Virus record (IMG/VR): IMGVR_UViG_3300025138_000031
Length of the DNA: 64,000 bases
Direction: 5' to 3' (one strand)
Origin: an uncultured virus (IMG/VR IMGVR_UViG_3300025138_000031)
Taxonomy: Duplodnaviria > Heunggongvirae > Uroviricota > Caudoviricetes
The position numbers and the translations under genes were made by a program. Under the pieces are notes generated by a model, which was not told the DNA's origin, did not search any database, and worked only from the letters and a program-made list of their open reading frames with translations. Shown here in pieces: positions 532 to 64,000 of this stretch. How positions within the stretch are numbered: the stretch's first letter is position 1; each line of letters starts with the position of its first letter.

Positions 532-617
532 AGAAATATTAGTAATAATAGAATGTACACTACGGTGTATTATTTGACTTGAGTACCAATTATTAATTTT
601 TAAAAAAACCAAACGGA

Positions 618-4055: not shown

Positions 4056-4090
4056 AGAGCAGGGGAAAAATCTCCTGCTCTTTTTATTTT
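4056..4090 (+). terminator. Rho-independent terminator
   Basis: AGAGCAGGGGA-AAAA-TCTCCTGCTCT followed by TTTTATTTT. Confidence 0.85.
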
Positions 4091-4147: not shown

Positions 4148-4723
4148 ATGGCAAAACAACATATATTAAGCTTAGAAATACCAGCAGTATCTAATTGTGA
4201 ACTATTATGTATTAAAGATACTAGTCAATATAGTGATGAGCTAGCTGTAGATTGTGAAGAACTTTTAATTACGTTACCTGGATATAGTGTACCAGTTCTT
4301 ATTAAAGTAGATAAAAACTTTGATATGTGTTTAACTGCATGCACATTGGCATTACAAACAAAAGAATGTGGTAAAACACAAGAAAAAATTCCTGATGGAA
4401 TATACATTGTTAAATACAGTGTATCTCCAAACTCTAAAGTGTATGTAGAATACAATCATTTAAGAGTAACTAGATTACTAAGTACATATTATGATGTGCT
4501 TTGTGAACTAGATGTACAGGCTTGCCAACCCAATTCAGAGAAACAAGCTTTGCTTGCAGAAATGAGTTACATTAGAACCATGATTGATGCAGCTGTATCA
4601 AACGTTGAGTACTGCCAATCAGCAGCTCAAGGTATGCAGTTATACAATTATGCAAAAAACAGATTGAACAAAATTGCTTGTCCATCAGGAGACTGTGGAT
4701 CAAGCTCTTCATATTTAATTTAA
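4148..4723 (+). CDS. Cys-rich structural protein (tail hub-like)
   Basis: IPDGIYIVKY beta-sandwich motif, helical C-terminus, many Cys; synteny with crAss hub genes. Confidence 0.45.
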   Translation: MAKQHILSLEIPAVSNCELLCIKDTSQYSDELAVDCEELLITLPGYSVPVLIKVDKNFDMCLTACTLALQTKECGKTQEKIPDGIYIVKYSVSPNSKVYVEYNHLRVTRLLSTYYDVLCELDVQACQPNSEKQALLAEMSYIRTMIDAAVSNVEYCQSAAQGMQLYNYAKNRLNKIACPSGDCGSSSSYLI

Positions 4724-4733
4724 AACCAAAAAA

Positions 4734-4913
4734 ATGGCAAATTGTGCACACTGTAATAAAACATTTACTTGTGGATGTCAAAAGGCTAGTTTAGGAAATG
4801 GGGTAGTTGTATGTAAAAATTGTAAAGCATTAGCTGAAGCAAATACAAGTACTTCAAGAGATTTGAATTTAGAATTAGCAAGACAACAGATACAAGATTT
4901 AAGAAGTAAATAA
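4734..4913 (+). CDS. 59-aa Cys-rich microprotein (CxxC..CGC..CxxC)
   Basis: MANCAHCNKTFTCGCQKASLGNGVVVCKNCKALAEANTSTSRDLNLELARQQIQDLRSK; fills the gap between neighbours and has an AAAACCAA leader; missing from the ORF track. Confidence 0.8.
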   Translation: MANCAHCNKTFTCGCQKASLGNGVVVCKNCKALAEANTSTSRDLNLELARQQIQDLRSK

Positions 4914-12739: not shown

Positions 12740-13204
12740 ATGGCACAGAAAAAAACAAAGGCTAAAAAGAATACTAGAAAAAGAAAACCAGCCAAAACTA
12801 CAATTGTTAATTTAAAAAACAATGTAGAAGAAAAACTTAGAGAACTAAGAAAGAAAGAAAAACCTTTTATAAGGTACAGTTTTCATATCAACTCTATTAA
12901 AGTAGATGCTAATAATATATTAGAAGAGGTGATATATGATTATAGAGGTGTCTTAGTAATACCTAAATCACAAAAAGATAACTATAAACCAGGTAATGTT
13001 TCTGTAACTGGTGTATACATTTTATCTAATGGATTAAAGTGGAATGGATCTAATAAAGATATGAGTAAAGTTAGTAAATCAGATGTTATAAATCTATTAA
13101 AAGATAACATTAGAGAAGGTTATATAGACTCAATGAAACAAACAATTGAGAAAGAGTTAATGCCAGAGTTTAAAATTATAAATGATCTTCCTTGGAAATA
13201 TTAA
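12740..13204 (+). CDS. Hypothetical protein, possible fibre assembly factor
   Basis: Basic N-terminus, C-terminal LPW motif; directly follows the fibre gene. Confidence 0.4.
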   Translation: MAQKKTKAKKNTRKRKPAKTTIVNLKNNVEEKLRELRKKEKPFIRYSFHINSIKVDANNILEEVIYDYRGVLVIPKSQKDNYKPGNVSVTGVYILSNGLKWNGSNKDMSKVSKSDVINLLKDNIREGYIDSMKQTIEKELMPEFKIINDLPWKY

Positions 13205-13221
13205 ATATTTCATTATCTTTG
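13192..13221 (+). promoter_or_regulatory. Bacteroidota sigma70-type promoter
   Basis: TTG (13192-13194), 19-nt spacer, TATCTTTG (13214-13221); matches the TTG-N19-TAnnTTTG Flavobacterium consensus. Confidence 0.75.
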
Positions 13222-13252
13222 TAAATAATAATTATTAAAAACCAATATTAAG

Positions 13253-13522
13253 ATGGCAAAATCAAAATCAAAAAAGGTTACATCAAAAGAACTAGAAACA
13301 ATTAAAGATTTACAACAAAAAATCAATACAGTATTAATGAATATAGGTAATGCAAGTATTGTAAAAAATCAATTAATTGAAAGTCATGTTAAGTTACAAT
13401 CTGAATGGAAAGCAGGAACTGAGAAGCTTGAAAAGAAATATGGTAATGTAAACATTAGTTTAGAAGATGGATCTATTAGTCCTTTAGAAGCAAAAGAAGA
13501 AGTACCTGCAGTTACTGCATAA
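13253..13522 (+). CDS. Small coiled-coil protein (possible fibre chaperone)
   Basis: 89 aa, helical, LEKKYGNVNISLEDG motif. Confidence 0.5.
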   Translation: MAKSKSKKVTSKELETIKDLQQKINTVLMNIGNASIVKNQLIESHVKLQSEWKAGTEKLEKKYGNVNISLEDGSISPLEAKEEVPAVTA

Positions 13523-13541
13523 TTTCTTTCCATACTTGTTT

Positions 13542-13594
13542 TATAAAATTTTTTAAAACCAGCATTAACTTGTTTGGTTTTAAAAAATTTTGTA
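13542..13594. repeat. 21-bp inverted repeat / hairpin
   Basis: TATAAAATTTTTTAAAACCAG, 11-nt loop, TTGGTTTTAAAAAATTTTGTA (two G-T pairs). Confidence 0.8.
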
Positions 13595-13640
13595 TATTAT
13601 AATTGTATAGTTTACCAGAGAGCAGTACATTATAGTAAAA
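13592..13640 (+). promoter_or_regulatory. GTATATTA motif plus AGCAGTACAT leader element
   Basis: Both elements recur together at 60316-60350. Confidence 0.5.
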
Positions 13641-13649
13641 TAAACATTT

Positions 13650-15869
13650 ATGATTCCAACAAATTCAAGCGGCACCACAAATGGGTGTGATAATATATCA
13701 TCTAATTGTGTAGTATGGCAAGGTCCTGATATTGCATGTATAAATTTATGTAGTGGAGATACTATTAGTGAAGTAACATCTAAAATTGCTACTAAGGTAT
13801 GTGACATAATTACAAATGGAGTATCAGCTAATCCAAGTTTAGCAGGATTAGATCTTACATGTTTAAATATCAGTGGCACTACCCCAACAACTTTAGTTCC
13901 TGTTTTACAGGAAATGGTAAATGCTATTTGTTCAAATAGTGGTACTACTAGAAGTTCTTTAACTCCTAGATCTCAAGTACAAGATGATTTACCAACTATG
14001 ACATTACCTGCATGTTTGCAGTATAATGATGCTAATGGTAACCCAGTAACAGAATTACGTTTAGATTTATTTGCATCACTTATTGCAAATCAAGTATGTA
14101 CTAACTTAGCTAGTATTAACTTAATTAATTCTACACTTACAAGTTACAGTAATAGACTAGATGTATTAGAAGCATGTGTATTACCATGTTCAGGTGCAGT
14201 AACTGAAGTACAAATTATACCAACTTGCGTTAGTAATGTTGGTAATTTAACAAATGTATCTATTGTTGTTTCAGCATTAGAGAGTGCATATTGCACATTA
14301 GTAGGAGGAACTGGTACAGTTGCTCAAATGAATTTAGCAATAGCACAAACTTCAATAACTAGTGCTTCTCCAACAAGAAATAATTCAGGTGCTACATATA
14401 GTAGCATAACTGGTTGGCAAACATCTGCAACTACATTAGCTCAATCATTACAAAATGCTTGGGTAGTGATAGATGATTTATATGCAGCAGTGGGAGATAT
14501 ACAAACAAATTGTTGTTCAAGCGGCTGTGATTCAGTAATCTTTGGATACAGCACATCTACAACAGTAGGAGCTAATGGGCTTTTAAATTCTGTTAACTTT
14601 AATTTTATTGGATCAACTATACCAAGTTCATTTAATGATAGTGCAGGATTTAGTAAACTTACTTTAACAGATGCATTAGGGGCTTCATTAACACAAGTAG
14701 TCAGCGTTTCATCTTTACAAAATAATTCAAATGGTTTTGACTTTTCAACTGGTAGTTTAAATACTCAACAAGACTTATCAATACAAGTTCAATTTAGTGT
14801 TACTAATGGTGTAGATACTTGTGAGGCAACTCAAAGTAATACAGTACCAGGTGTAGTACCATGCCCAACAGTAAGTATGACAGCAATAACTGGTACAGAA
14901 GCAACAGTAAACTTTACTAACCCAATAGGAACTACTGCAGTTTATGTACTTGATGTATTAGATGCATCAAATGCAGTAATTGCTACACATACAGTAAATA
15001 ATCCATCAGCTAGTGTATCATATCAATTTACAGGCTTGACTCCTGGTACTCCTTATGTTATAAGAGTAACAGTACAATATGGTGGTGCAACAAAAGTATG
15101 CCCATCAAATGCATTTTCTACAAGTTCAGGTGCAGCACCATGTACAAATGGAATGGATGTAGCATTTATAATTGACTATACATCAAGTATGTCTGGTGAA
15201 ATTGAAGCAATTAAAACAGGTGTAGCAAGTATTATAAATACTATTAACACTGCTTCAGGAGCTAATAACTATAGATTAGGATTAGTTACAGCAGATGAGA
15301 ATAATACTGGAACACCAACTTATGCTACATCAACTGATTACTTAGCATTACCATCAGCACAAAGAATTATAAACACAGGATCTAATAATCATTATCAAAT
15401 TATTACAGCATGGGAAATGTTCCAAGATAATAATGATACAACATTTACTGCACAATTAAATAAACTTAATAGTGGAACAGCTCCATCTGGTGTACCAATG
15501 GGACAAGGAGATGGTTTACCAGAACCAACAGATATGGCACTTGGTCAAGTTATTGAATCTAGCAATTTCTTAAATGCATTTAGAAATAATGTAGCTAAGT
15601 ATGCTATAATTATAACAGATGATGCAGCAGGAGGAGATGATGATACTTTCAACTCAGTAGACTATGCAAGAATTGGAAGTTTAACAACTACAGCATTAAA
15701 CAATGGAATTAAAGTATTTGTACTTGGTGCAGGTGTTAATAAAACTTATAATGGTGGTTCAGGTATAGTATATCCATGGAGAGAATTATCAACTAATACT
15801 GGAGGTAACTGGAATGTAAGTGAATCTCCAACGGCAATACAGAATGAAATAATTGCTGGTTGCTCTTAA
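13650..15869 (+). CDS. Cys-rich structural protein with FN3 and C-terminal VWA domain
   Basis: FTGLTPGTPYVIRV (FN3); DVAFIIDYTSSM MIDAS-like motif at about 15174, RLGLVT, IIITDD, IKVFVLG (VWA). Confidence 0.8.
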   Translation: MIPTNSSGTTNGCDNISSNCVVWQGPDIACINLCSGDTISEVTSKIATKVCDIITNGVSANPSLAGLDLTCLNISGTTPTTLVPVLQEMVNAICSNSGTTRSSLTPRSQVQDDLPTMTLPACLQYNDANGNPVTELRLDLFASLIANQVCTNLASINLINSTLTSYSNRLDVLEACVLPCSGAVTEVQIIPTCVSNVGNLTNVSIVVSALESAYCTLVGGTGTVAQMNLAIAQTSITSASPTRNNSGATYSSITGWQTSATTLAQSLQNAWVVIDDLYAAVGDIQTNCCSSGCDSVIFGYSTSTTVGANGLLNSVNFNFIGSTIPSSFNDSAGFSKLTLTDALGASLTQVVSVSSLQNNSNGFDFSTGSLNTQQDLSIQVQFSVTNGVDTCEATQSNTVPGVVPCPTVSMTAITGTEATVNFTNPIGTTAVYVLDVLDASNAVIATHTVNNPSASVSYQFTGLTPGTPYVIRVTVQYGGATKVCPSNAFSTSSGAAPCTNGMDVAFIIDYTSSMSGEIEAIKTGVASIINTINTASGANNYRLGLVTADENNTGTPTYATSTDYLALPSAQRIINTGSNNHYQIITAWEMFQDNNDTTFTAQLNKLNSGTAPSGVPMGQGDGLPEPTDMALGQVIESSNFLNAFRNNVAKYAIIITDDAAGGDDDTFNSVDYARIGSLTTTALNNGIKVFVLGAGVNKTYNGGSGIVYPWRELSTNTGGNWNVSESPTAIQNEIIAGCS

Positions 15870-15886
15870 AATAAAAAAGAAAAAAA

Positions 15887-16453
15887 ATGGCATGTAATTG
15901 TACAAAATGTGATCAAAAATGTGGATGTAGTGATACAGCTCTAACTAACCCATGTACTTATACTGATTGTAGTGTAGGTAGTGAAAGATGTACAGATATT
16001 CAATGTGCTGAATGTGTTAGTTATTGTGGGACTTCATTTCAAATAGGAGACGCAAATGCTAGAATAACAATTCAATCTGGAGAAAGACTAGATTCTATTA
16101 TTCAAAAATATGCTATGATCTTAGCAAACGGATTAGGTGCTTGTACATCAAATGATGTTCAACATGATCCATATAATGTATATGCAGGTGTAATTACAAG
16201 CAGTACAGTAAATGTTTTATGGAATGGTATATGGAGTTCTAGTACAGGTTTTAATATATACATAGACACAGTAATAGCACCTTCTGGATGGGGTACTCCA
16301 GTAAATGGAGGAACTCCTATTGTAACAACTATAAGTAATTATACTATATCAAACTTATTGGCTAGTACAGCTTATAAAGTAAAGGTAGTAGATAATGGTA
16401 ATTCTGCAGCGTGTAAACCTCTAGAAATATTGTTTACTACTCTAGCAACATAA
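15887..16453 (+). CDS. Cys-rich protein with C-terminal FN3 domain
   Basis: 11 Cys in the first 47 aa; VLW..FNIY..NLLASTAYKVKV FN3 pattern. Confidence 0.7.
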   Translation: MACNCTKCDQKCGCSDTALTNPCTYTDCSVGSERCTDIQCAECVSYCGTSFQIGDANARITIQSGERLDSIIQKYAMILANGLGACTSNDVQHDPYNVYAGVITSSTVNVLWNGIWSSSTGFNIYIDTVIAPSGWGTPVNGGTPIVTTISNYTISNLLASTAYKVKVVDNGNSAACKPLEILFTTLAT

Positions 16454-16503
16454 TACAACAACAGCAAGTAGTGGTTTGTTGGTTTTCTACTGCAAACGTT
16501 GGG

Positions 16504-16538
16504 AGAGACTGGGTTTATATCCGGTCTCTTTTTTTTTT
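16504..16538 (+). terminator. Rho-independent terminator
   Basis: AGAGACTGG..CCGGTCTCT followed by a T-run. Confidence 0.85.
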
Positions 16539-16567
16539 GTATCTTTAGCCCAAAATAATAAAAAGTT

Positions 16568-17803
16568 ATGAACAATTTAAAACAAAGGATAATTGAATCA
16601 TTTAGGTGGAAAAAACATCCACGTATATGTGCAGAAAAGCTAAATATTACTGAAAAGCAATATGTAAAATTAAAGAGGGAAATACTACAAGAAAGAAAGA
16701 AAGAAAGAAAAGAAGAAAAAGATAAAAAGAAATTCTTTACAAATGCTGAGGGAAAATGTCAGATGGTTGAGTCAATTGATCTAGAAAAGGGGGAAGGTAA
16801 AATATCAGGTACTTTTGATCATGAACCAAAATCATCAGAAGAAATTATTAAATTATTAAAGATAGACACAAACAAGTGGAAGCTATCACAGTATTGGAAT
16901 AAACAAATGGGAGACCATTGGAGAGTTTCTGCATTAGTATCACAAATTAAAAACCCAGAAAATAAATTATTTGAAGAGTTGTTAGCCAACTGGAAACCTA
17001 AAACATATAAGATCCCTAAAGTAAATTTAAAAGGAATTAAAAGTAAAGATCCATTATGTGGAGTAATGTCTTTACAAGATATACATTTTGGTAAAGAAGG
17101 TAATGATACTATAGATAAAGACTTTGAAGACACAATTAAAAATCTTATACAAAGAGCAGTACCTGTTCATTATATAGAAACTATGTATTTTGTTGTAGGA
17201 GGTGATCTAATCAACATGGATACGTTTGAGGGTAGTACCACTAGTGGGACTGTTTTAGATAACTGTATGACCGCTACAGAGGCTTACGTACAAGCATTTG
17301 ATGCTATGCATTGGGCTATAAATTATATTAAGGGTTATTGTAAAAATTTAATTATAGTATATGTTCCCGGTAATCATGATAGATTATCTTCTTATCATCT
17401 AGTTCATGCATTATCAAAGTCTATTGAGTCAGAAGAAATAACTTGGGACATAAAATATGAAGAAAGAAAAGTACATGTATGGTATAATAACTTTAATGCT
17501 TTTGAACATGGTGATAAACGTAGCAAAAACAACCCATTAATATTTGCTACAGAATATCCTAGAGAATGGGGGAGTACAACAAATAGAACTTTATTTAAAG
17601 GTCATATACATACAGATAGAAAGGTTGAATATATGACATCTAATGAGACAGCAGGTTTTGTAGAAAAAACTTTACCTAGCTTAGGAAAAGCAGATTATTA
17701 TCATTACAGCAATAAATATGTAGGTAATAGAAGATCTGGTAAATTAGAAATCCAACACCCTACAATGGGTAATATATGTGAGTTAACTTATCAAGCTCTG
17801 TAA
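16568..17803 (+). CDS. Calcineurin-like metallophosphoesterase with N-terminal extension
   Basis: All five motifs present: DIHFG, GDLIN, GNHD, EHGD, GHIH. Confidence 0.9.
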   Translation: MNNLKQRIIESFRWKKHPRICAEKLNITEKQYVKLKREILQERKKERKEEKDKKKFFTNAEGKCQMVESIDLEKGEGKISGTFDHEPKSSEEIIKLLKIDTNKWKLSQYWNKQMGDHWRVSALVSQIKNPENKLFEELLANWKPKTYKIPKVNLKGIKSKDPLCGVMSLQDIHFGKEGNDTIDKDFEDTIKNLIQRAVPVHYIETMYFVVGGDLINMDTFEGSTTSGTVLDNCMTATEAYVQAFDAMHWAINYIKGYCKNLIIVYVPGNHDRLSSYHLVHALSKSIESEEITWDIKYEERKVHVWYNNFNAFEHGDKRSKNNPLIFATEYPREWGSTTNRTLFKGHIHTDRKVEYMTSNETAGFVEKTLPSLGKADYYHYSNKYVGNRRSGKLEIQHPTMGNICELTYQAL

Positions 17804-17805
17804 AG

Positions 17806-17841
17806 ACCTTACTTTTAATTTCATAAAGTGAGGTTTTTTTT
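17806..17841 (+). terminator. Rho-independent terminator
   Basis: ACCTTACTTT / AAAGTGAGGT followed by a T-run. Confidence 0.75.
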
Positions 17842-17862
17842 GTAAATTATAAATATAACTAT

Positions 17863-18429
17863 ATGATCAACAATTTTAAAAAGCCCAATCTAAATGCTCC
17901 TAGATATAGAGAGAAAAGAATGGGGTTGCTAAATGAAGAAACAATCAGAGAGTTTAAGGATAAGAAGCCTTTATACTCTCACATAGATAATGTTAAATTA
18001 AAAAAGATAATAAAACTATATAATAAAAAACTTTGGGAAGCTGTAGTAGAAAATAGAAATGGTGTGGAGTTACCAGATTCATTAGGTTATTTATTTATAG
18101 GAACATGTAAGGCAGCAAAGACAGTAAATACAAACTATGCTTTATCAAAAGAATATGGTAAAGTATTACAGAATAAAAACTGGGAAACAGATGGTAATTT
18201 AGGTAAAATATTTTATACAAATTATTCTACTAAATATAGATTTAAAAATAGAGAGTTATGGAGATTTGTAGCTTGTAGAGACTTTAAAAGAACAGTTGCC
18301 AAAGAGTATCCTAAGAATTGGACTAAGTATGTAGTTATGAAAAATAAATATAAAGTAGCTCATTTGTATGATGAAAACTTTGAAGAAACCAACAAAGCAT
18401 TAAATTATTACAATGAATTTGAAAAATAA
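17863..18429 (+). CDS. IHF/HU-like DNA-binding protein (crAss-type)
   Basis: Basic; GVELPDSLGYLFI and WRFVACRDFKR resemble HU/IHF arm motifs; position before tail ring genes as in crAss-like phages. Confidence 0.65.
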   Translation: MINNFKKPNLNAPRYREKRMGLLNEETIREFKDKKPLYSHIDNVKLKKIIKLYNKKLWEAVVENRNGVELPDSLGYLFIGTCKAAKTVNTNYALSKEYGKVLQNKNWETDGNLGKIFYTNYSTKYRFKNRELWRFVACRDFKRTVAKEYPKNWTKYVVMKNKYKVAHLYDENFEETNKALNYYNEFEK

Positions 18430-18434
18430 ATAAC

Positions 18435-19109
18435 ATGGCAACAATTGGAGAAACAATATCTAGAATTAGAGGACAAGTTAAAGCAGAGGTTCAAGATGCT
18501 TTTGTCACTGATAGATATATTTACAGCCTAATAGAAAAACATGCACAGTTTTTAATGAGAAGACAAGACTATGCAAATAAATTATTAAAGTTTAATTCTG
18601 TTTGGAAAACATTACCATATGTAGAACTTATTGACGTAGATAAAGTAGAAGCACATTGTGCAGGTATTACAAGTGGATGTACAATAAAACGTACAAAACA
18701 CAAACTACCCTCAATGTTTGAAGGATATTGGGGACCCCTTATCCGTACTATTGGATCAATAGATGGTTCATTAGAACTACAGGCAACTCAACCAGGCACA
18801 TATACATCAATGACTAAATCATCATCTTTTAAGTATAATGATACATTGTACTTTTGGTGGTTAGATGGATATATATACTGCCCAAATATTGCATGGGATG
18901 CATTAAAAGTAGAAGGAGTATTTGACTCAGACATTACAGCTTGGGATTGTGATACAGAAAACAATTGTACACCAAGATATAAACAAGAAATATATATACC
19001 TGAAGCATTGTTTGCAGAAATTGAACAACAGGTGGTTGCTACTATGATGAATACATTGAAGGTACCTTCAGAAGACTCTGACAATAAACGTAACTTAATG
19101 AGAAATTAA
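18435..19109 (+). CDS. Tail ring/adaptor protein
   Basis: Helical N-terminus, beta middle (WWLDGYIY), IYIPEALFAEI C-terminal helix; synteny. Confidence 0.6.
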   Translation: MATIGETISRIRGQVKAEVQDAFVTDRYIYSLIEKHAQFLMRRQDYANKLLKFNSVWKTLPYVELIDVDKVEAHCAGITSGCTIKRTKHKLPSMFEGYWGPLIRTIGSIDGSLELQATQPGTYTSMTKSSSFKYNDTLYFWWLDGYIYCPNIAWDALKVEGVFDSDITAWDCDTENNCTPRYKQEIYIPEALFAEIEQQVVATMMNTLKVPSEDSDNKRNLMRN

Positions 19110-40679: not shown

Positions 40680-43600
40680 ATGGAGAACCAAAATGACACT
40701 AATCTAAAAGATCAGTCTCTAGCTAGTACTATACAGGAAACACAAAGACCAACTGCTAGTGTAGTACCACCTGGCCAAGACTTTATACCTGTTACAGAGA
40801 TGTTTGAGAATGCGTATACTAGGATTGCAGATATTAATGCTATAGATCCAAGTATAATTTCAGGTGTCAATAGATATAGAAATGAATTAGATGAATATGG
40901 TATACCTGCTCTAGCTAGTTTAGGTGTGGCTAGACCTTCTTTAGCCACTGGTAAATTTGATCCAGTTGCTCAACAGAATCCTCCTGCTAATGATTTTAGT
41001 AAAATACAACAAATATTAAATGAAGATGTTTCTGAGGGACCAGCTGATGATATAGCTGCTCCTAGATTTGTCAATATGAGAAGTTCACAATTTGATAGAT
41101 ATTTTAATAATAGAAAATTTGATGATTTAGGTTTTACTCCTTATAGTAATACAGAAGAATATTACAACCAAAATTCTGATGTATATGATGACATGTCTAG
41201 AATGTGGGGTCAGTATACAAGTTTAGCTGGTTCAGGATTTAGTAGTGTATACAGATCTATAGGAGATTTTTTTGATGGAGATAACTATGCATACGCACCT
41301 GATATTTCTACTGCAATGGAATTTGAAGATGCAATGAGAGTTGGTAATTCTTCAAGAGATGGGGGTATGGCTTGGACCAACAACCTGCTGTTAAACTCTG
41401 CATATACAATGGGTATTATAGGATCTATTGCTGTAGAAGAGTTAGCATTGTTTGCTGCTGCAGGAGTACAAGGTTTTTTAAATCCTGCTTCAGATGCAGT
41501 ATTATTAGCTAGAACTGGAGCAAATATAAAAAGACTAGCCGTTGAAGGAGCAAGAGTATTTAATGTATTTAGAGGGTTGGAAGCTGGTAGAGATATTTAT
41601 AAAACTTTAAAAAGTGCTGAAGCAGCTAAAGACTTTTGGTCTGCTGCTAAAACAGGTGGAAGAGTTTTAGGAAATGCGTTTGCACCTAATACAGTATATG
41701 CTTTAAAGAATTTTAAGACTGCACAAAATGCAACACAAAATGGTATTAACATAGCAAAAGCAGCTAGTACATTTGGTGGTTTTTATAGAGATGTAAGAGC
41801 AATAAATTTAGCATTAGCAGAAAGCAAGTTGGAAGGTGGTATGGTTTACAACCAACTTGTAAGAGATGGTATTAGAATACATGAAGCAAAAACAGGTAGA
41901 CCTGTTACACCTGATCAAATGGCAAAGATTGAATCAGCAGCAAGTAAAGGTTCATTTTATACTACTATGGCCAATGCACCTATTATATATGCTAGTAACT
42001 GGTTTGTACTAGGGAATGCAATGGGTGGGTTTAATAGAACTTTAAGTAGAGTATTTAATGATTCTTATAGAAGAGGTTTTAAAAGTATAGTTCAAACAGG
42101 AGCTACAAGAAATGCTAAGGGTGTATTAAATAAAAATGTATTTGAAAATGTAGGAGCAAATCTAGGTGGTACTTGGAAGAAAGTAAAAGCAGGTGGATGG
42201 AAAGGTTTAGTAGGAAGTGGTGGAGCAGCCATGTTAAGATATGCTGCTGCTAATATAGCAGAAGGTGTACAAGAAGTATCCCAAGAAGCAGTATCTGCAG
42301 CAACTACAGGATACTATAATGAAGTTATGAAAGATCCATTAGCTGGTGGAATGGAACTTAGAAATACTATGATTGCTAATGGTATAGGGTCACAGCTATC
42401 TTCAGAAGGATTTAGTGTATTTATGTCTGGTTTCCTAATGGGTGGTGTAGTACAATTACCACAAAAAATGTTTTTCCAAGGAGTTCCTTCTATATACAAG
42501 TATGGAGCAAACCAAGCAGCTTCTGGTCTAGGAATGGACGGAGGTGTATTTGGTACAAAAGGACAAAATGAAGCTTGGGCTGAATACAAAGAACAAAGAG
42601 ATGAGTTTTTAGCAGATATATTAGAACAACACAATACAGTATGGAATAATCAGATTGATGATCCTACTTCATTGTTTGATGAAACCAAGTTTAATTTCTT
42701 TATGCAGAAGCAAATGGCTGATGGCATGAAAGCTGCCAATGGTCAAGACATGTTTGCTTTTAAAGATGAGCAAGATGCTTCTAAGTTCCAACAAATGTAT
42801 ACTATATTTCAACACGGTACATCACAAATTTACAGGGATCAGTTAACTGACATGTTGAAACTTACTAATGAAGAATTGTATGAGGCATATTCAGGATCAG
42901 CAGGAGTAAAGAAATCTGATATTAAAAATGGAAAGATAAGAGAGCGTTTAACTAATATGGTTGAGGCTATAGATAAACAAGAACAAAACTATCTAGATGA
43001 TGTAGCTAAATTTCCACAACCTTTTGATCCTTCTAAATTTAAAAAAGGCACTCCTGAATTTACACAAGAAGTATTAAGTGCAAATGCATGGAATCATGCT
43101 AGATTCTTGTATATGTTTACCAAAGATGGTTTTACACAAGCATTAGAAAGATCAAATAAGATCTACTCTTTATTAGAGAATGAACCAATCTTTGCAAAAA
43201 TGGAAGCTAAAGACCTTACTGTACTTCTTAGTGCAGAAAGTATAGATGCAGAAATAAAGATGCTTAAAGCTGAGAAACAAGTATTTCAAGATTCTGATCA
43301 AGCACCACAAACTAAACAAATTGCTGAGAAAGCAGAACGTATTGCAAAATTAGAAGCTATTAAAGCTATCTTAACAGATCCTAAATATACTACTAAGTCA
43401 GATGGAAAAAGAAAAGGAACATTTGACAGAAGAAATATTAAAAAATTAAGTCCTGCATTTGCAGCATATGTAAAATATCTTGCAGGAACTCAAGATTCTT
43501 TTGTAAGTGAAGAAAACATTAATAAAGCATTAATAGATATAGTAGATCATATTGCTCTAAAAGAAAGAGCTAAGGTATATGATAAAGCTATAGAGTATTT

Positions 43601-46600
43601 AGGTAACCCAGAAAGATTTGGTGAAATTTTTAATAGACAACTTGAATACAACAAACAATATTTTTCAAAAGTAAAAGAAAACTTTGAAAAACAATTAAAG
43701 AAATATGTAAGTATTCAAGAAGCTAATCAATTGATGAGTGAATTTTTAGCATTAAACCCTTCTGTTTTCTTTGATCCAGAAGAAACAAAAATGTTTTTAG
43801 AAACAAATGATATTAAATATCTTAAAACAGCTTATACTGAAACCAGTCAGGTATCAGGTATTGATTCAGATGGGGCCTTTGTAATTTATGATAAGATTTT
43901 ACATGAACAAATTAAACAGAAGTTAAGAACATATGCTGGGATTCAAGAAGATGTGTTTGAGCAACCAGAAACTAAACCAAAAACAGAAAGTGATTTATCA
44001 AATGAAGCTGCTGCTGATGTAGAAGATACATTAGGTAATATGGGTATTGATGTTGTATTGGATCAACCAAATAATACACCAATGCTTAATGCTCTACTAA
44101 AAAAAGAATATAGAAAGTATCAAGCTACAGCATCTATAATGGGTGATCCAGTAATATCATTTGATAGATGGAGAGATAGTCAAGAAGGTGTAAATTTACA
44201 AAATGGTTTCAATGCATTAAAAAAGATTTGGGCAGCTGGTAAAATGTCTAATAATCCTAGTACTCAAGAAATAGAATATATTAGCCCATTAAGCTCTGAG
44301 CAAGTTATTTCTGAAAAAGGTTTTGAACAATGGGCATTATCAAGAGATACTCAAGAAAGTCCACAAGTAAGAAGAGTGTTAGATCAGCTAGGATTAAAAC
44401 TGTCTGATATATTTGTAAACGTAGATGCAGTTGGTGATAAAGGATCTACTATACCAGGAGATGCAAACAGAAAAGTAATAGAGAAAGGATCTACTGCAGC
44501 ACTTATAAAAATAGACACTGTTGATGTAAATTCAGGAGATAGAGTTTCTCAGTATAAGATTACAGATTTAAACGGAAACAACTTATCCAAAGAGTTATTA
44601 AATTTCTTAGATCAAAAAAACCAAGTACATAGGTTTGGAACATTTACTACATTAGGTAAAGCACTAGCTGCATATAAGATAATAGAAGCAACAGCACCTG
44701 ACACATCAATATTTCCTTTTGATGGAGTAGAGGGTTTAAATCAAGGGATGCTTGTATACAAAGATAATGAACCATTTATTATTTTAAGTAATCCTGGTGA
44801 AGCAGCCAATGGATATTTAAAAATAATTCCTGCTGCATTAAATACACCAAATAAAAAAGAGCTAAAAAGTAATACTATTACTTTACAGCCAGGACAATTT
44901 AAAGGTGTATACACAAAACAAGATTTAGATACTACTAAGTTTAATGCTAATGTAGCACGTATAGATGTTAATGAACCTATTACACCATATAAGGCAGTTA
45001 ATAAAGGTGAAGATAGTGGGTCATTTGGTGAAGCAGAAGCTAGATATAATCTTATTGTTAGCATGTTATCTGCTGATGAATTAGCAAATCTTGAATTTGT
45101 TATTTCAGTTCCAGAAAATAGTGGTGAAGTAAGTGAAAGGCCATTTAGTATAACAGGTAAGGATGGTGTACAATATTTATCTCCTAACCCACTTGTTAAA
45201 CTTGTAAAAAGTAAATACCAAATAGGTATAAGAATTAAGGATGCAGCTATTAATAGTAGATTAATGGATGCATTACTTAAGGTTGGTTTAAAACCAAATA
45301 CAAATGAGGGGAACTTCTTTGCATTTTTAAACAACCAATATGTAGTAATGGAAGATTTACAAGGCAAGCCGGTAGATCCACGTAGTATGTCAGAAAGTCA
45401 AATGCTGAACACTATATATCCAGGAGGTGTACAGAACATGTCTAATAAAGAACTATTAAATTTAGTTCATAACAACTTTGCATTAAATGCTTTAATAGTT
45501 AGTGAGTTAGATGAATTAGGATTAACAACTGAGAGTGGAGAAGTATCATTTATAAATGGTTTTGGTAAGTTTGGTCTTAAGGTTGATGGTGGTAGAGTTG
45601 CTTATCCAGAAAAAGGACAGCAAATATCTAGACCTGTAAATGATTTATTGTATAATGATTCAGATGGAAACGGTGGTATACTTATATATGATTTTAAATA
45701 TGATCCTGATTTAGGGAAAAGAACTGTACAAACAGTAACTAATTTAGAAGGTGATGCACAATCTAAACTTAGAGCTGATGTAAAACAAGGTTTAGGAGAT
45801 AGATATAATGACATGATCACAGGTAGTGATAGATACTATGTTATTATTAAATTACCTAATGGAACCTATGCTCCAGTTAATTTAAAATCTAGAAAGAAAA
45901 CATTAGTGGAAGTTACTAGTTTGTATACTAGGATTATTTCTAGAGCTCAAGATACACTTAAAGATAATAAAAAAGGAGATGTATTATTTAATGAAAAATT
46001 TAATGAAGAGACAAACAATGAGTTGTTTATAAGTAATAAGCCTGGTTATATTATTGATTTAGAAGTTAGTCCATTTGGACAACCACAACTTATATTAAAG
46101 AAAAAATTAGGTAAAGATAATTTTGAAGAAAAAGCTAGAATAGAAATAAGTAAAGATGTAGTAAGAGATGCAAAACTAGGTTCTACAAAAGAAATGCAAA
46201 CTTTATTAGATGACTTTAATAAAGATGAAGCAGTCAGAGCAGAAGGAGTCAAACTTTCACCAGCTAATTTTAGAGAGTCATTTCCTGATGGTGCACCAGT
46301 TGAAACAATACTAGAAAAAAGTAGAACTAATGTTTTACCTAATGTTGTAGAGCAACAAAAATTAAGAGTAACAGGTGATGATGCAGCTATACAGGCTTCT
46401 AAAGATGTTGCATTTATTAGTCCTTTAAAACCAGATGAGGTTAAACCATTAGAGAATCCTACAAATGAAGAATTGGGAGATGATGGAATAAATGGAATAT
46501 CAGATGAATTGTTTGATGAACAATTAGAACGTGAATTTGAAGAATATAGTAATCAGACTTTACAGCCTATAGTTAATAAGATATTAAGGGGATTAGAATT

Positions 46601-49600
46601 AAATGCACGTGAAGAAAATGTATATAAATATTTAGAGTCTAAAATAGAACTTTTAGTTTTAAATCAAGGAGGAAGAGGTAGTAAAGCAGAAGCAACTGAG
46701 GTTTTGGAAAGCCCTTTACAAAGAGCTAAGCAAGAACTAGATGTATATAAAGAAGAGCTACTTGCAGGTGTACTTTTTAAAGATCACGCTAAGACATTAA
46801 AGAATAGTAAAGAGTATCAAAGGTTAGTGAAGAACTATAAGCAGCTTGCAAAAATTGCTAACAAACTTTTAAAACCTAGTCTAACACCATTAGAGGTTGA
46901 AGAGATAAATACATTTATAGATTGGGCTAGAGTTAATTTACCTGATTACATTTCTGTTGAGACTTTAGAAAATCTAAGAGATAACTTCCAGAGTAATAAT
47001 GAGCGTGTAGGTGCATTTATGCTAAATATGAGTGGTATAGGAAATGGTGTACAAGGAACTATATTTACAAAAGCTTTATCTCCATTTAAATACCATGAAG
47101 CTTTTCATGGTGTGTTTAGAATGCTACTATCTCAAGAAGAAATAGTTAAGTTCCGTAACATAGCAAGAAAAGAAGTAAGAGCAAAACTTAGAGCAGAAGG
47201 AAAAAGCTTTAAGAAAGAATTAGGAATATTTAGAAACTCAGCTAGTACCTATACTAACATGAGTGAGAAGGAATTAGAAAATGAATATTATGAGGAATAT
47301 CTTGCAGATGAATTTGAGAAGTTTAAGATGGATCCCAAAAGTTCTAATGTGGATGCTGAAGTTAAGTCTTTCTTCACTAGACTTATGGAATGGCTCAAAT
47401 CTCTATTCAATAATGTTGCACAAGATGAGCTTCAAACCTTATTTAAGAATATTGATACAGGAAAATATCAACAAGCTCAAGTAGCTAAGAATGAGTTTAC
47501 TGCTGCTATGAATGCAGGACCAATTGTAGCTAATGCATTATTGCCTTATAGTAATGAACAAGTAGAAGATGTATCAGGAAATATAAGAACAGGTACTCTT
47601 TATTTAAACAGTGACATATCTAACCCATTAATTGGTAGTATGGCAGCAATGTTTTTAAATAGAGTTAGTGAAATAAAAGGTGCATATAACCCAGCATCTG
47701 TTTTAGAAGTTTTGATGGGTGACTTTCAAAATTTATATCATCCACTAAATCCAGCTAATGAATCTTTAACAGAAGAACAACTTGCTGAATTAAGCATTAT
47801 ACAAGATTCATTTAATATTTATCCTGAAGAAATAACTAAAGCTGTTGTGTCTCAATTAAACACAATAGGAACACAAGTAGAGAATGAACAATTTACTTTA
47901 GATGAATTTGAAGATTCTAGTGGAGTTAGAACAACTTCTCAATATGATAAAGATGCTTCATTGATTGGAGGTTTTAATTCTTTAAGTTCATTTATAAGAG
48001 GTTTTATAGCAACAACAAATCTAGTTGCTGATGATCAAGGTCTTGTCATGGATTTGTATGGTAATACAGAACTTGAAAGTAGTGATGAAAACATTGGTAC
48101 TAAACCACTTATTATTCCGGTAGATGCACAGTATGCTTACAATGCCTTACTAAAGGCTGTTAAAAATACAGAGGACACTAAACAAATTTTAGAACAGATG
48201 TATGCTTTTGGGGTAGATAACCCACATGCAGGTGCTGTAGTAACTAGAATATTAAATAGAGCAGGTATTAGTCCTGAGACATTATTAAGTAAAGATCCTT
48301 TACCAGTTAATTTTGTAATGAAAGATCCAGGATTTTTACAGTCAATAATTAAAGGTTTCCAAAATTATAGAGTAAATTATATATTTAATGAAAGAGATGA
48401 ATATGGTAATATTAGAATATATTCTGCTGCACAAAGAGATGATATTAATGCACAACTAGATAAATGGAATCAAGCATTCATAAGCAAGAAGAAAAGATTT
48501 AATAATGAAAAAGTACAGAACCAAATAGAAGAACTACTTAATGGTTTAAATGATTTATTAACGTCCCAGAAAAAAATAACAAATAAAGCATTATCTGAAA
48601 AGGCTTCTAAATATTCTCTAGATTTATTTAACCTAGTAGGAATAAAACTTAGCCCATTGTATATACGCTTTAGTGCATTAAAGAGCAAACCAACATCTGT
48701 ACTAAATGTATCTCAAGCTAGTCTTGTTAGAAATAATATTGATCAATTAAGTATAAATGAAATAGGTCTTAATCAAACTAGCAAAACAGTTAATGAGTAT
48801 GTTACAACTATAGAAGAGCTTAGGCTTGGTATACAACGTAATGCAAATATTTTTAGTACAGGCAATGATGGTATAGCTTCTAGATTATATGAGCTATCTC
48901 AAAACAATGCAGCATTTGATGAGACAGTAGGTGCTTCAGTATTTAAAAACCCTAATGGTGATTTAGTATTTGCACATCAGTTGCCTACTTATCATTTAAA
49001 ACAAGTTAAGGCATTAAATAATATTAGTACACTAGATAGTTTAAAAGCTACTGATCCATACTTAACTAATAATTACTTACTAAATAGTGCAGCATTTAGA
49101 AACATGTCTAACAAACAAAAGCTGCAGATTTCTAGAATAGCTGGAAGTAAGATTGGTCAAGAATTAAATTCTGAGGCAGATTTAAATGAATTTATAAGTG
49201 GTATTAAGTCTACTCAAACATATGGTGAGTTTACTCCTCAAGAGTTTGCGGTTACAATGATTAATAATTACACTGCATTCTTTAATACAAAAAGTAATAA
49301 AGTAGACAGAGTCTTAGATGCAGAAGGTAATGAAGTAGGGATAGCCCCTATTCTTGTTAGAGTAATGGAAGCTTCTAATACAGGAGACATGCTTGGACTA
49401 CCTGTTATTAAAGCAGTTGAGACAGTAAATGGTGAAGTTAAAATAACTGATACAGCTATTGATATTGTTGTTAATGAAATTGCTACAGAGTTTTCTAGAA
49501 TAAACAGAGAAGCACAACAACTAAATGATGCAGGCAGACAATTAATTAAAGGATACAATGTTAATGAAAATGGAAGAGCCTTTAAAATCAACAACAATAA

Positions 49601-52600
49601 ACTTGCTCTTTCTGAAGAATTAAGAACAAGACTAGAGAGAGTTGCTATTGAACAAGGTAAAGAAGGTAATACAATTACATTACAAAATGCTTTATCTGCA
49701 GCAGACACAAGTATTGGTGCATTAAAAGCAGACATTAGTAAAAGTTTAGAAATTCAGTTTGATGAATTTCAAGACACATTAGATGAACTAAATGTAAGGG
49801 ATCAGTTCTCTAAATATATTAAAGATGGATTAGCTGTTGGACAAGGGGTAGCTAGAAAAGAAACATTAAAATCAGCTAGACTTCTTAATTTAAATTATTT
49901 AGAAGAACACAACCTAAAACAAATATTTATTAATGATTATATTAATACATTATCTATAAATCAAGTTTTATTAGGAGATGAAGCTATGTCTTTAAAGGAT
50001 CCTATTGATCAGGTTAAAAGGGCTAAGATGCAAAATGCAGCATACTATAGTGCATATAGTTCTTTCTCTGCACCTTTACTGGGAGTAGATCACAATGTAG
50101 AAGATATTTCTTTAATTACTTTTGAAGAACCAAAAGGTCAATCAGCTATTACAGGAGAAGATATAGATAGAGCTGATGCCCAAATGTATATAACTACTAA
50201 AGCATTTAGATACATGTGGTTTGGTTTTGGTAAACTTACAAAAGCACAAGCAGAACTAATTGATGCTATTGAGAGTGGTCAGACTTTGCCATTAGGAACT
50301 TATGATCTAGCAAATCAATTGTTTGGTAATGAACAATCTCCAATAGGACTAGTAGATCAACAGGCTATGTTGAATTCTAAGAAACTAGTTTATGGAGATG
50401 GTAAGACATTTTTAAAGATGTCTGCATTTGTGTTGACACCACAATATACTTCAACATTAGATGATCAAGGCAAGTGGGTTGCTAAACCAAATAGAATTGA
50501 GCTACATAATTTAAGAGTTAAACTAGAAGCTATAGAGAACAAAGAAGGTGCACAAACACTTGGTATTGCTGCTCCTGAATCTGCTTCTAAGATGATGAAG
50601 CAAAACATCAATAACATAGAACAACTAGGTAATACAAGAGAATTTACTGAGGAAGTAACAAACCTAGATGCTAGAATGATGGGGTTACAAGTTCTTAATC
50701 CTAGTAATAAACTAGATATAATTGATCCTACACAGATTAAAGAGATATTAACATCTGAACAAGATGATAGTGTTTATGTTGCTGCTTTGGATATGACAAT
50801 TGGAGAAATTAGATCAGCATACAACCAGGCTGTGTCACAAAGAGTTGAGCTTAAATTTAAAGATAGAAGAAACTTAATATTTACTTTAGGGACATCTTAC
50901 GATGAATTAGCTGTATCTAAAGAACAAGGAAAACTTACACCTAATCTTCAAGCATTTTTAAATTATGCAGTTAATAGTTTAAAAGCTTCTCAATCATCAG
51001 AGACCTTATTAGATTTCTTTTCATCAACAGATGGTGTACAGAATTATGATTTAAACAACCCTGTAACAGTAAAGAAATTTGAACAACTATTCTTAAGCTA
51101 CTTTAGTAAGGGTACATTATCAGAACGTGCTCCAGGAGTTTCATTAACTTTGGTTTCTGATTTTGGAAATAAAGTATACAGAAGAGTATATGAAGTAGAT
51201 GCAAACGGAGTACCAGTAAGATCTGAAGTAATTAGAGAAAATGTTTTTGAAAAAAATCCAGAAGCTTTAGTTGAATTAGATTCATTAGTAGAAGGTGATC
51301 ACAATGGTGTGGTAGTACTAGATAGATTAAGAACTGGTTTAATGGGATATACTGATCCTAAAGACAAGTCTACAGCTACAGGAGAAAGATATTCAGAAAT
51401 GATAATGCCAGCTCACTATAAAGATATTATGACTTTAGTTGAAGAGGGTACAATGGAAATGCCTGAAGCTATAAGTAAAATGTTTGCTGTAAGAATACCT
51501 ACACAAGATAATCATTCTGCTATGGCTGTAAGAATGGTTGACTTTATGCCAGCTTATTATGGATCTACTGCAATGTTTTCTCAAGAACTAATAGAAATAT
51601 CAGGTGCAGATTTTGATATAGATAAAGTTTTTGCATTAATTAAAGAGTTTTACGTAAAAGATAATAAGTTTGTAGAGTATAGCCAAGAAGGAAGTTATGA
51701 TGAATACTTCAGATATGTAAGTGAAAGAGTTCTTAAGTCTGGAAATATATATGCAGAAGCAGCTAATTTATGGGTTGATGAACAATCAGAATCCAAAACT
51801 CCTATAACTCTAGCAGAAGAAAACAATGTTACAGATGCAGGTTTAAGTGAAAGGGGTTTACAAGCACTAAAAGTATTAGGTCTTCCTATTACTAAAGCAC
51901 AATACAAACTGTATGTTGCAAAATTTGGTGTTCCTTATGCAGCTCCACTTAACAATAAACTTGTAGATCTTAAGTATGCATTGGTATCTAATACCGGTGT
52001 GACGGAAAGTGAATCAGGAGTTCCTATTTCTTATCAATCAGCTAACCAACAGATAATCACAGATGTGTTAACTGAGTTAGCAAATGAGTCAGATTATTTT
52101 AAGAAAAAAGTAGAAGAAAATGTATCAGATATTAATAATTTAAATGGTAAGATACTTGCTTTTAAAGCTAATAAGGGTGCATCAATTGGTGCATTTGTAT
52201 TGCCTAATTTATATTTAAGTTTATTGACTGAATATAAATCTGAATTGAAATCACCAATTACAGTTAACGGTAAGCCTTATTCTAAATATGGTGTTACAGT
52301 AATGGAGAATGGTGATAGAAAGCAAGATGTTAATTCTTCTTTAGTTACCATGGCAACAGATAATGCTAAAGACCGTAATGTTGGTAAGCTTGGTTTAAAT
52401 AGAAATGCATCAGCTGTATTAATGAATATGGTTGCATTAGGTATTCCACTTAAGACTGCCGTGTTATTAATAAATGTACCAAAAGTTCAAGAGCTTTATA
52501 CAGCAGCTATAAACAAAACAGATATGTTTGATGCTGGTATTATTGCTTTAGTAAAAGCTGAATTAAGTGAGTCAGAACAAAAAGGACAAACTGGTTTGAT

Positions 52601-54424: not shown

Positions 54425-57400
54425 ATGGCAAGATGTCCAAATAAAAATACTGCAGAGTATAAAGCATTACAAGATGTATTTCAAACAGAAATAAGAACTA
54501 ATAGTGTTATAAATACTTGGCAAGACATTAATAACTCAGATGCATTTCCTACACCTTTTCAGGCTAATGAGATGGTGTCTGATCAGAAAGTTGCTTTTGC
54601 TTTAAAACAAAAATCATTTGGATTAAGTTTATTAGATAACTTACGTAGAGAACATATAGGTCATACATTCCAGGGACAATTTTTAATTAATAATTCTAAC
54701 CCAGTTACAAGAGAATATGACTCAATGTTTTTAGATGCTAATGTTAAAAAACTATATAGATATTTAAGAATAAACAATATACCTGCTGACACAGTTACAT
54801 TACAAAGAACACCAAAGACATATAGACTAATTGTAAATGAGGATTTATTTACTAATAAAGATGTACTTGAAAAGTCTAGGTCATGGGATACTAATAGGTC
54901 TAGAGAGGTTGTTATGCACCTAAAAAGAATGTTTCCACAAGTTAATGTAGAAATGTTGAGTGTTACTGAAGCTGCAGATATGTTTTCTATGTTTCCAGAA
55001 TGGAAGAAGAGTAATGTTAAATTTAAAGATGTAAAATCTTTTTATGTAGACGGTACAGCATACTTAATAAAAGGTAGAGTAACTGATGAGACAGCAATAG
55101 AAGAAATGCTACACCCTTTAGTAGATGCAATCAAAGTAGACAACCCTGAATTATTTAATGGTTTGTTAGCAGAGGCCAGCAAGACTTTTCCAGAAATGGT
55201 TCAGCAGATAAAAGCTGAGTATAATGAGAATACCAGAAACTTTAGTGATACTGAAAGAAATCTAGAAATAGTAACACAAGCCTTATCAAGACACTTTAAG
55301 AAAGAATATGAAACTAATCCTAGCCAAGGATTCCTAGACAAAGTAAATGAGTTTATGGATTGGTTTATGGAACTTATAAATAACCTTAGTGAGTATTTAA
55401 CAGGTACACCTTTATCTGTAAAAGATATAAACCCAAGTGGTAACTTAAGTGATATTGCTAAACTTTTAAATACAGAAAGAATACAATTTAAACTGGAGAG
55501 TAGAGCTGATGGAAAGATAAGGTTTAGTTTATCTCCAGAAAAGAAAAGACAGGTTGATCAAGCCTTGTCTGAAGCTAATGGGGTACAAGCAGAAATAATA
55601 AAAAGTTTATTTCATGTAGCCAACTCATCAGATGTTGAAGTTAATTCATTGTCTGGTAGCAGATTTAAAACTGAAGAGGAAATGCAAAGAGGAGACTCAG
55701 GAGAAACCATTGTTGTTTTAAATGAGAAGAATCACACATACTATGATATAACAGATAAGCTTCAGCAGAAACCATATACCTCAGTTACTACAGCAATCAA
55801 AGGCACTCTTAAAAACTTAGAAGATGTTCAGCTTAATTTAGATATTGGCAATGATGTTGATGCTTTATTAGATGCTTTGGTAACACACCGTAGTGTAGAG
55901 GATGTATTTGATCAAATGAAAGTTGTAGATCTAGAGACTGCTAAAACTGTTTATAATACATTACAAACTACACTAACTAATATAATGCCTGAAGGATCTA
56001 TTGCTTTATCTCAAGTTGTAGTATTTGACAAAGCAACAAAAATGGCTGGTACAGCTGATTTAGTTATTGTAGATAAAAATGGTTTTATTAAAATTGTAGA
56101 TTTAAAGACTACAAAAAATTCTTTAAAAACCTATACTACAGAAGATACAAAGGTAGGGAGAAAACAAACTGTATATTATGATAAAGAATGGGCACTAAAT
56201 GAGGATAGTTTATTGAAACAAAAAGGAATTGATAAATTATCTACTAGAGGTCAACATAACCTACAAGTAAACATTTATAGAAGGATGTTTCAGAATATGG
56301 GATATGATGTATACATGGGAGACTATGCTGCATCTACTTTTCATTTAGTTGCTGATATAAGTGGGAAAGGCAAGAACCAAAAGTTCAATGGGAATATTAA
56401 GTCTGATCAATGGGTAGATCATCCTATATCTCAGAATATTAATTATGTTAATATGCTTATGCCGCTCAATCCTGATACAACTAAAAAAGAAGAGTTAGAT
56501 GAGCTTACTAAAGATATGGAAAATAAACTGGTTGATCCAGATGTTGTTCCTGCAGATTTAGTAGAAGAAGATGAAAAAACAGCAGAAACGGTTACACCAG
56601 TTCCAGAAGATCCAGTATATGATACTATTTCTGGCATACTTAAAGAATACCAATTATCATTAATAAATAAAATAGATTTACTTGAGGCAAAGAAATTAGC
56701 CAAAGCTTCTATATTTATTGATAGAACAAAAGATGAAGCAATAGAACAATTGGCTTCTACAATTGCTTTTATTAATATAGCAATGAGTGAGGGGCCTATA
56801 GCTAGATCTTCTGCTTATTCAGAATTATTACAAGACTCACTAAGACAAGTTAGAAAGTTTAGTGCCTATGTTCAAGATCCTAAGAACTTTGCTAAATCTG
56901 AATACATTACTTATGTATTAAATTTTGATAAGTTTATAAAAACATTCCAAGGTTTACAAAGCATTACTGATCTAGCACCTTTAAATGCAACGCAAAGATC
57001 TTTAATATTGTCTCTTAAGACAGATCTTAATAAATTAACTGGTGCTGATGGAACACAACAAGGTTTAATAGATGGTGCTATTAATGATTATGTTAAGGAA
57101 ATTATTAGAAACAAATCTAATAGAGCTTATGGTGAAGAAGGAAGCTTCTTTACAGAAGCAAATCTAGAATTGTTGTTAAAAGAAGCCAGAGACATCTCTG
57201 GTACAGATCTTTACACTAGGGATTTGGCTACACAAGGTGATGTTATTTTAGCTTTGATGGATAAAATATATAAGTCTAAAAAACAAGAGCTATTAGATAA
57301 AGTTGCAGAAAGAGAAGGTGTAATTAAAGCAGCAGGTAACCAAGTAATTAAACTTACACCCAATGCAAAACGTAATACAGCATATAATTTTATGTTAGTA

Positions 57401-63979: not shown

Positions 63980-64000
63980 ATTGGTTTTTTTAAAAGAGAT

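Follow-up and report, generated by a model that had tools for sequence, protein, structure and literature searches.

A conserved hairpin between a stop codon and a terminator in an uncultured crAss-like phage, a candidate antisense regulator of several phage genes

Classification and features

The window, as the whole stretch of 64,000 nucleotides analyzed here is called, is part of the genome of an uncultured crAss-like phage. It contains a block of virion genes, very large ones included, and ends with nrdA (assigned by PHROG) on the minus strand. Close relatives in IMG/VR are 107-118 kb long. In one of them, G002, the terminase and portal genes (both assigned by PHROG) are followed by a gene for a 441-aa protein (family F41), the capsid gene, a small gene and the orthologue of ORF 618 of the window (family F60); from this order the window presumably starts at the end of the capsid gene. 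The capsid protein of G002 is of the Crassvirus type (Pfam Crass_capsid PF23898, E 4e-30) and the gene order is terminase, portal, gene, capsid, which is the basis for the term crAss-like, the taxonomy being known here from genes alone.

Among cultured phages the nearest infect Flavobacterium and Cellulophaga and are only distantly related. The cultured crAss-like phages phi4:1 (Cellulophaga) and Fpv1 (Flavobacterium) share with the window distant homologues of one virion protein, with 21-26% identity, and the records of cultured phages contained no real DNA match to the window and no homologue of ORF 618. Distant homologues of the exonuclease and of one virion gene, in the same order, are present in a phage deposited as infecting Leptolyngbya (L927, PP438436.1). 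The leaders of the phage genes have adenine peaks at positions -3 and -11 to -13 and lack a G-rich element. The same adenine pattern was described for F. johnsoniae (PMC6847099), which makes a host from the Bacteroidota likely and agrees with the suggestion in the preliminary description that the host would be of a type that does not use Shine-Dalgarno pairing.

The locus under study lies between two genes on the plus strand. The upstream gene (15887..16453) encodes 188 aa with weak fibronectin-III and tail-protein matches (Pfam fn3 below its cut-off). The downstream gene (16568..17803) is exonuclease-like (PHROG 704, E 5e-45) and is preceded by TATCTTTA, which we take to resemble the -7 promoter element of Bacteroidota. 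Between the stop codon of the former and an intrinsic terminator (16502..16538, plus strand), a hairpin of 14 pairs with a U tract (T run in the DNA) that covaries in the relatives, sits the hairpin described below.

Structure and conservation of the hairpin

The hairpin (16468..16493, plus strand) has a stem of 7 bp, GTAGTGG (16468-16474) with CTACTGC (16487-16493), and a loop of 12 nt, TTTGTTGGTTTT (16475..16486; UUUGUUGGUUUU as RNA), which is the candidate seed and whose core GTTGGT is kept family-wide. Hairpin, terminator and four complementary boxes before start codons had been placed correctly, coordinates included, in the preliminary description, which gave the hairpin a 15-nt loop of G and U only. 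This register was rejected, since the conserved stem, in the alignment of 72 homologues as well as in RNAalifold, closes 12 nt. A weak outer stem, CAAC (16456-16459 or 16459-16462) with GTTG (16498-16501), spans 16456..16501 on the plus strand; both of its ends are conserved in the close clade only, it is not part of the RNAalifold consensus, and distant clades have different flanks.

In the alignment of the 72 distinct close homologues, made without regard to structure, 98.8% of the cells of the stem are paired, five of the seven pairs have double changes and none of 500 shuffles reaches this, a comparison in which relatedness alone can beat the shuffles. RNAalifold on the relatives returned the same stem. 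The cells comprise 386 Watson-Crick pairs, 112 G-U pairs and no A-C combination on the plus strand, and six others; 112 G-U against no A-C means that it is the plus strand that folds. All 12 columns of the loop are invariant in alignment A1, apart from one inserted base in L335 and, in three rows, an additional T. Opening of the loop costs 0.3 kcal/mol in 16454-16538 and 1.4 kcal/mol in a 240-nt context of the window copy, and the loop core opens for less than 1 kcal/mol in 68/72 close and 72/94 distant copies. A conserved, accessible seed, as expected of a base-pairing small RNA from a 3' UTR, is present. In stability the isolated hairpin does not stand out (z -0.4 to -1.3), and in some of the sequence segments folded at 37 C it has a competitor, a structure with the loop buried; the case therefore rests on comparison and not on folding energy.

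The position of the hairpin is as constant as its loop. Among loci selected by the upstream protein the 12-nt loop follows directly after the stop codon in 63 of 64, the remaining locus being a match to another gene, with the hairpin further on. Among 80 loci selected by a second protein 78 reach the site, 77 with the exact loop and one with a one-base insertion, and in all 78 the hairpin precedes the exonuclease gene. One exact copy per genome was found in each of three records checked. A search of the window with Rfam 15, GcvB and C4 included, gave no match, the best local scores being 17-19 bits against cut-offs of 41-80. Pattern matches in cellular genomes numbered 12, of which eight are without the structure and four either contain the phage-type hairpin or match phage copies exactly; these four look like phage contigs in genome bins, and no cellular family of the hairpin was seen among the 12. 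Contigs with a phage-type hairpin occur in bacterial bins assigned to Gammaproteobacteria, Flavobacteriales, Pseudomonadales and Lacinutrix (L187, L190, L191 and L198), the two flavobacterial ones being weak hints to the host.

Boxes in the leaders

The 3' part of the loop (16479-16486) is the exact complement of the box AAAACCAA, of which the window has 16 copies against 5.7 expected (reached in 0/100 shuffles). Four of its 28 leaders contain the box, against 0.06 expected (a count reached in none of 20000 leader shuffles). The remaining 12 comprise the loop itself, a palindrome at 13554-13590 and copies inside genes. This long AT-rich palindrome (13545-13592 in its full extent, z -5.8), with arms AAAACCA/TGGTTTT, overlaps a promoter-like motif before gene 13650; it was found in two of ten relatives checked and so is not family-wide.

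The preliminary description had named four genes as one target set, and orthologues uphold two of them. The box of ORF 618-1637 (F60, 339 aa) lies at 605..612 on the plus strand, positions -13 to -6 of the leader, and is kept in 9/9 close orthologues. ORF 618, the second gene after the capsid gene, belongs to no Pfam or PHROG family and to no Atlas family. The box of ORF 4734-4913 (F73, 59 aa, cysteine-rich) lies at 4722..4729 on the plus strand (-12 to -5) and is kept in 7/7. The two others are lineage-specific and patchy: the box of ORF 13253-13522 (13238..13245, plus strand, -15 to -8) is present in 4/10 orthologues, and that of nrdA, which reads downwards from 63979 (box 63981..63988, minus strand, -9 to -2), occurs as AAACCAA in 5/11. 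The best match belongs to F41, the gene before the capsid gene and just outside the window, with AAACCAA in 10/10 close relatives. F41, F60 and F73 are the three of 87 gene families in which every member has AAACCAA; the counts omit members that piece boundaries had split.

The enrichment in leaders that had been predicted is also found beyond the window, where AAACCAA is the top 7-mer of the phage leaders, in 58 of 938 against about 10 expected; these leaders come from 12 relatives and the window and are orthologues, hence not independent. By a position-aware model the 8-mer AAAACCAA is not enriched in 307 sampled leaders of Flavobacterium succinicans (2 against 2.5), of which 14 contain AACCAA; a cruder pattern count gave some excess of TAAAACCAA before ATG in four genomes of the host type (39 against 11, 47 against 17, 19 against 15 and 29 against 15).

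Among 220 arrangements of its own bases the loop ranks third, and the top four share GUUGGUUUU. In the window the duplexes of loop and box are short, and weak at -7.1 to -9.6 kcal/mol; those of the F41 orthologues reach -9.8 to -13.2. The first C of the last box clusters at -8 to -11, with a peak at -9. Doubled boxes are common (two or more in 125/211 F60 leaders), and the leaders look AU-rich, with probably little structure to melt. A gene of 196 aa found only in relatives (F8; 9027-9617 in L205), just before a DnaB-like helicase gene and on the strand opposite the hairpin, has the box in 6/12 relatives and a weak match to the MotA activation domain.

Distribution in distant loci

Homologues of ORF 618 that are distant from the window led to 307 further loci, 224 of them distinct. 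In these an AACCAA box precedes the F60 gene in 205/217, F41 in 192/209, F73 in 98/103 and the capsid gene in 1/214; some of the misses are wrong start calls that were left in the counts. Capsid leaders are equally rich in A and C, with AACAA in 119/172. The distant stems differ completely from the close ones, with GTTGGT unchanged. In one clade (L607-L613, G081-G084) the box is lost before F41 and F60 and kept before F73, and the loop is kept.

The covariance model R1 matched 39/44 records at E up to 0.5; of its best 30 matches, 27 are the hairpin, two are boxed F60 leaders read backwards and one looked like the latter. The model R2 matched 23/33 and 32/33 further records at E up to 0.02, and all 46 of its best 50 matches that are seen in full show the hairpin, the other four being seen only to just past the loop. 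A metagenome scan for one sub-type gave at least 120 stretches, 97 of which pass the terminator filter. R2 gave only weak matches in Lbo-JY46 (best E 0.015) and found no hairpin in the records of phi4:1 and Fpv1, in which respect these two would differ from the phage of the window; the models also missed true divergent copies. One divergent clade (L481-L488) escaped both covariance models, the pattern search and the protein search and was found by gene order, so that misses of the models are not absences.

Changes in loop and boxes

In the deepest clade reached (L481-L488) the loop ends in GTTGGTTC (GGUUC) in 4/4 records, and 13/14 boxes read GAACCAA, as against 2/668 elsewhere. The C in the loop needs a G in the box, and two separate leaders changed; the pair GGUUC/GAACC is taken as a single mirrored evolutionary event in a long-branch clade. 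The fold that presents the loop is the minimum-energy fold in only one of three sequences folded from this clade. In about eight other lineages the loop changed without a matching change in the boxes: where the first 3' position of the loop differs, the facing base is still A in 23/23 boxes, and a new A on the 5' side is faced by T in 1/19. Such changes at the loop edges would only shorten the duplex around a fixed core. The base opposite the loop G is C in 467 cases, T in 109, A in 118 and G in 4; relative to A, T is more frequent than in the background, an excess that G-U pairing would permit.

A second pairing site is a possible lead. CTGAC is present in the RNA of 7/7 records that have GTCAG in F41 or F60 leaders, seven further records have CTGAC without GTCAG, and GTCAG occurs in 0/87 records without CTGAC; this motif was chosen after the data had been seen and spans four lineages. 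A family-wide test gave p 0.038 for F41 and nothing significant for the other families, with better values for hand-drawn clades; without the four lineages it was null for F41 and F60, and the signal of F73 was mimicked by a reversed tail. For held-out metagenome loci from 12 lineages, with leaders read within 10-kb flanks, p was 0.014 for run length (0.60 when reversed) and 0.08 for energy (0.06 when reversed). Independent pairs were too few for a comparison. The clade of the window has no CTGAC/GTCAG site. Leaders of L411, L558, L580, L626, L630, L633 and L634 and of the metagenome loci L835, L859 and L864 contain a second motif, GTCAGTCA, whose complement lies in the RNA directly 3' of the loop. 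In L835 and L864 up to 12 contiguous pairs join the RNA and the F73 leader, and in F73 the motif overlaps the Cys-stop end of the upstream gene.

Transcription

RNA contigs of four runs were compared with 13200-18500. Low coverage of the upstream genes came from X1 and X2, and no contig of any run spans the hairpin, contigs of this kind showing neither transcript ends nor absence. No promoter motif was found within 75 nt upstream of the hairpin in 63/63 close loci. A promoter-like motif, TATATTA (13589..13612, plus strand), precedes gene 13650 and is the likely start of a two-gene transcript that would end in the hairpin; the latter is therefore probably the 3' end of the gene-13650 transcript or a piece cleaved from that transcript. 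In 234/292 loci F41 has a TATATT-type motif upstream, as do genes 2484, 4148 and 13650 of the window. A recurring motif, GTATATTA followed by TATA, at 2383, 4111 and 13593 and upstream of F41 in the relatives is a candidate late promoter. Terminator-like hairpins at 194-219 and 4056-4081 separate the target genes from the transcript of the hairpin.

Proposed function

A structured RNA throughout the family, together with conserved tags in leaders that match it and a single mirrored change, is real and far beyond chance, and the element is a strong candidate for a phage-encoded antisense regulator with several targets. That its loop pairs in trans with leaders of the phage, whichever the direction of control, appears likely; the narrower reading, in which the phage-encoded hairpin pairs in trans with the boxed leaders and represses them, is the one that we favor, with some reserve.

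The hairpin would act as antisense RNA from the 3' end of a late transcript of tail-fibre type, either while it is still the end of that mRNA or, after processing, as a fragment that the terminator protects. The presented loop would pair in trans with the AACCAAC boxes that immediately precede the start codons of F41, ORF 618 and ORF 4734, and the duplex would cover the A-rich stretch that ribosomes of Bacteroidota use instead of a Shine-Dalgarno sequence. In F. johnsoniae adenines at -12/-13 promote initiation (PMC6847099). With the first C of the last box at -8 to -11, the A run of the box covers these positions, so that masking of the stretch would most likely lower translation. Repression is also the simplest outcome of such a duplex by the example of GcvB, which masks ACA enhancers (PMC3879156). 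Translation of the boxed genes would then fall once late transcripts accumulate, and the untagged capsid gene would stay on. From these patterns we infer pairing in the cell, action in trans and repression. F41 is a probable scaffold by its place between the portal and capsid genes, and Atlas gives weak scaffold leads (0.81-0.83); damping of F41 and the two other genes, with the capsid gene spared, might serve the timing or stoichiometry of head assembly. When the whole 85-nt RNA was co-folded with leaders, targets (-1.7 to -2.8) could not be told apart from non-targets (-0.7 to -3.0), in a model that cannot pair the loop without opening its stem.

If this is true, a widespread group of aquatic phages sets the output of several late genes by an RNA regulator of its own, and regulation of this kind works in hosts that ignore Shine-Dalgarno pairing. 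The element would be short and portable, with a natural compensatory pair (GGUUU/AAACC against GGUUC/GAACC), and the box would mark which genes without assigned function are regulated together with the probable scaffold.

Alternative explanations

The same pairing could activate translation or stabilize the tagged mRNAs, by shielding from nucleases or by loading of ribosomes. All of the pairing evidence applies equally to this reading, the boxes lie at the position of a Shine-Dalgarno sequence and are often doubled, as in more than half of the F60 leaders, and lambda has an activating phage small RNA (10.1101/2024.10.31.621285). It is nevertheless unlikely, as pairing would mask adenines that promote initiation, the AU-rich leaders seem to offer little structure to be melted, and the capsid gene is left without a box. 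The capsid protein is normally the most heavily made virion protein.

Quite improbable is a reading in which the box is a binding site for a protein, either a translational regulator of the phage or bS1, for which the minus strand of the hairpin region serves as a decoy. That strand can fold a hairpin with the loop AAAACCAACAAA, which as a mimic of the boxes would also change together with them, and A/C-rich motifs are described as translation enhancers in themselves (PMC3879156). The strand of the structure argues against the decoy, however: every one of the 112 pairable cells other than Watson-Crick is G-U on the plus strand and an A-C mismatch on the minus strand, with none the reverse, and the terminator faces plus.

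There is a slim chance that the hairpin acts only in cis, in processing, stability, termination or as a protein site, and that the boxes are an independent enhancer that matches the loop incidentally. The lack of a promoter motif before the hairpin (0/63) fits this, as do the unmirrored loop changes and the clade that kept its loop after losing most boxes, and matches of low complexity between U/G and A/C stretches arise easily in AT-rich DNA. This would leave unexplained why an invariant loop has its exact complement in the leading conserved word of the leaders, why three genes keep the box and the capsid gene has none, and why GGUUC/GAACC changed in mirror fashion.

It is likewise doubtful that loop and box make up a private code of addresses in place of the Shine-Dalgarno pairing that the host ribosome cannot use, by which tagged leaders would be switched on or delivered to ribosomes or to the assembly site, perhaps from mRNA to mRNA, with GTCAG/CTGAC as a second address in some lineages. 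Very improbable, finally, is that the main targets are host mRNAs with AACCAA-type leaders, for shut-off or steering, and the phage boxes secondary: dozens of TAAAACCAA sites before ATG in host-type genomes, and the AACCAA in sampled leaders noted above, speak for it, but the position-aware model found no enrichment of the 8-mer there, and it is the phage's own boxes that are conserved and changed together with the loop.

Comparison with known systems

The favored reading, a repressing hairpin loop, has its likeness in GcvB, a small RNA of enteric bacteria that is Hfq-dependent; to our knowledge, Bacteroidota lack Hfq. As proposed here, one RNA pairs with an A/C-rich, enhancer-type sequence upstream of several start codons, and silencing of ACA translation enhancers is the effect proposed for GcvB (PMC3879156). 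GcvB differs in that it is cellular, acts in hosts that use Shine-Dalgarno sequences and is related to the phage hairpin neither in sequence nor in Rfam; in the phage element a hairpin loop would serve as the seed, and late genes of the phage itself would be the targets.

CpxQ, DapZ and MicL are base-pairing small RNAs derived from 3' UTRs, as reportedly are SroC-type sponges (PMC4474525) and CisR (PMC13250501). The phage element resembles them in its location from stop codon to terminator, its conserved seed and target sites near start codons, and differs in being encoded by a phage and in being known here from sequence alone. Among phage RNAs, the c4 antisense RNA of P1 and P7 uses loop sequences against the phage's own mRNA. 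PreS/LPR1 of lambda is a phage-encoded RNA that acts in trans (10.1101/2024.10.31.621285). Both share with the present element the phage origin and base pairing in trans, which is proposed here; they belong to temperate enterobacterial phages and act on host genes or on the switch between lysis and lysogeny.

The phage small RNAs met in the literature search came from enterobacterial or Pseudomonas phages, and in this search, which fell short of most subscription papers, no published element of the present kind was found. The main text of a 2025 review of phage small RNAs (PMC12197685) lacks the terms 'Bacteroid', 'crAss' and 'capsid'. The loop is absent from six supplements of a large screen for viral RNAs (PMC10690425), files 1, 2 and 4 lying outside that search.

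Other features of the window

Two very large ORFs, 40680-54416 (4578 aa) and 54425-60262 (1945 aa), have no PHROG match and by position may encode proteins packed in the virion. A virion-packed RNA polymerase is known from crAss-like phages and is a possible parallel. Downstream of the exonuclease-like gene, at 17804-17862, a short hairpin with a T run is followed by TAAATTA, which is kept in 12/12 leaders of gene 17863, another conserved leader or promoter element.
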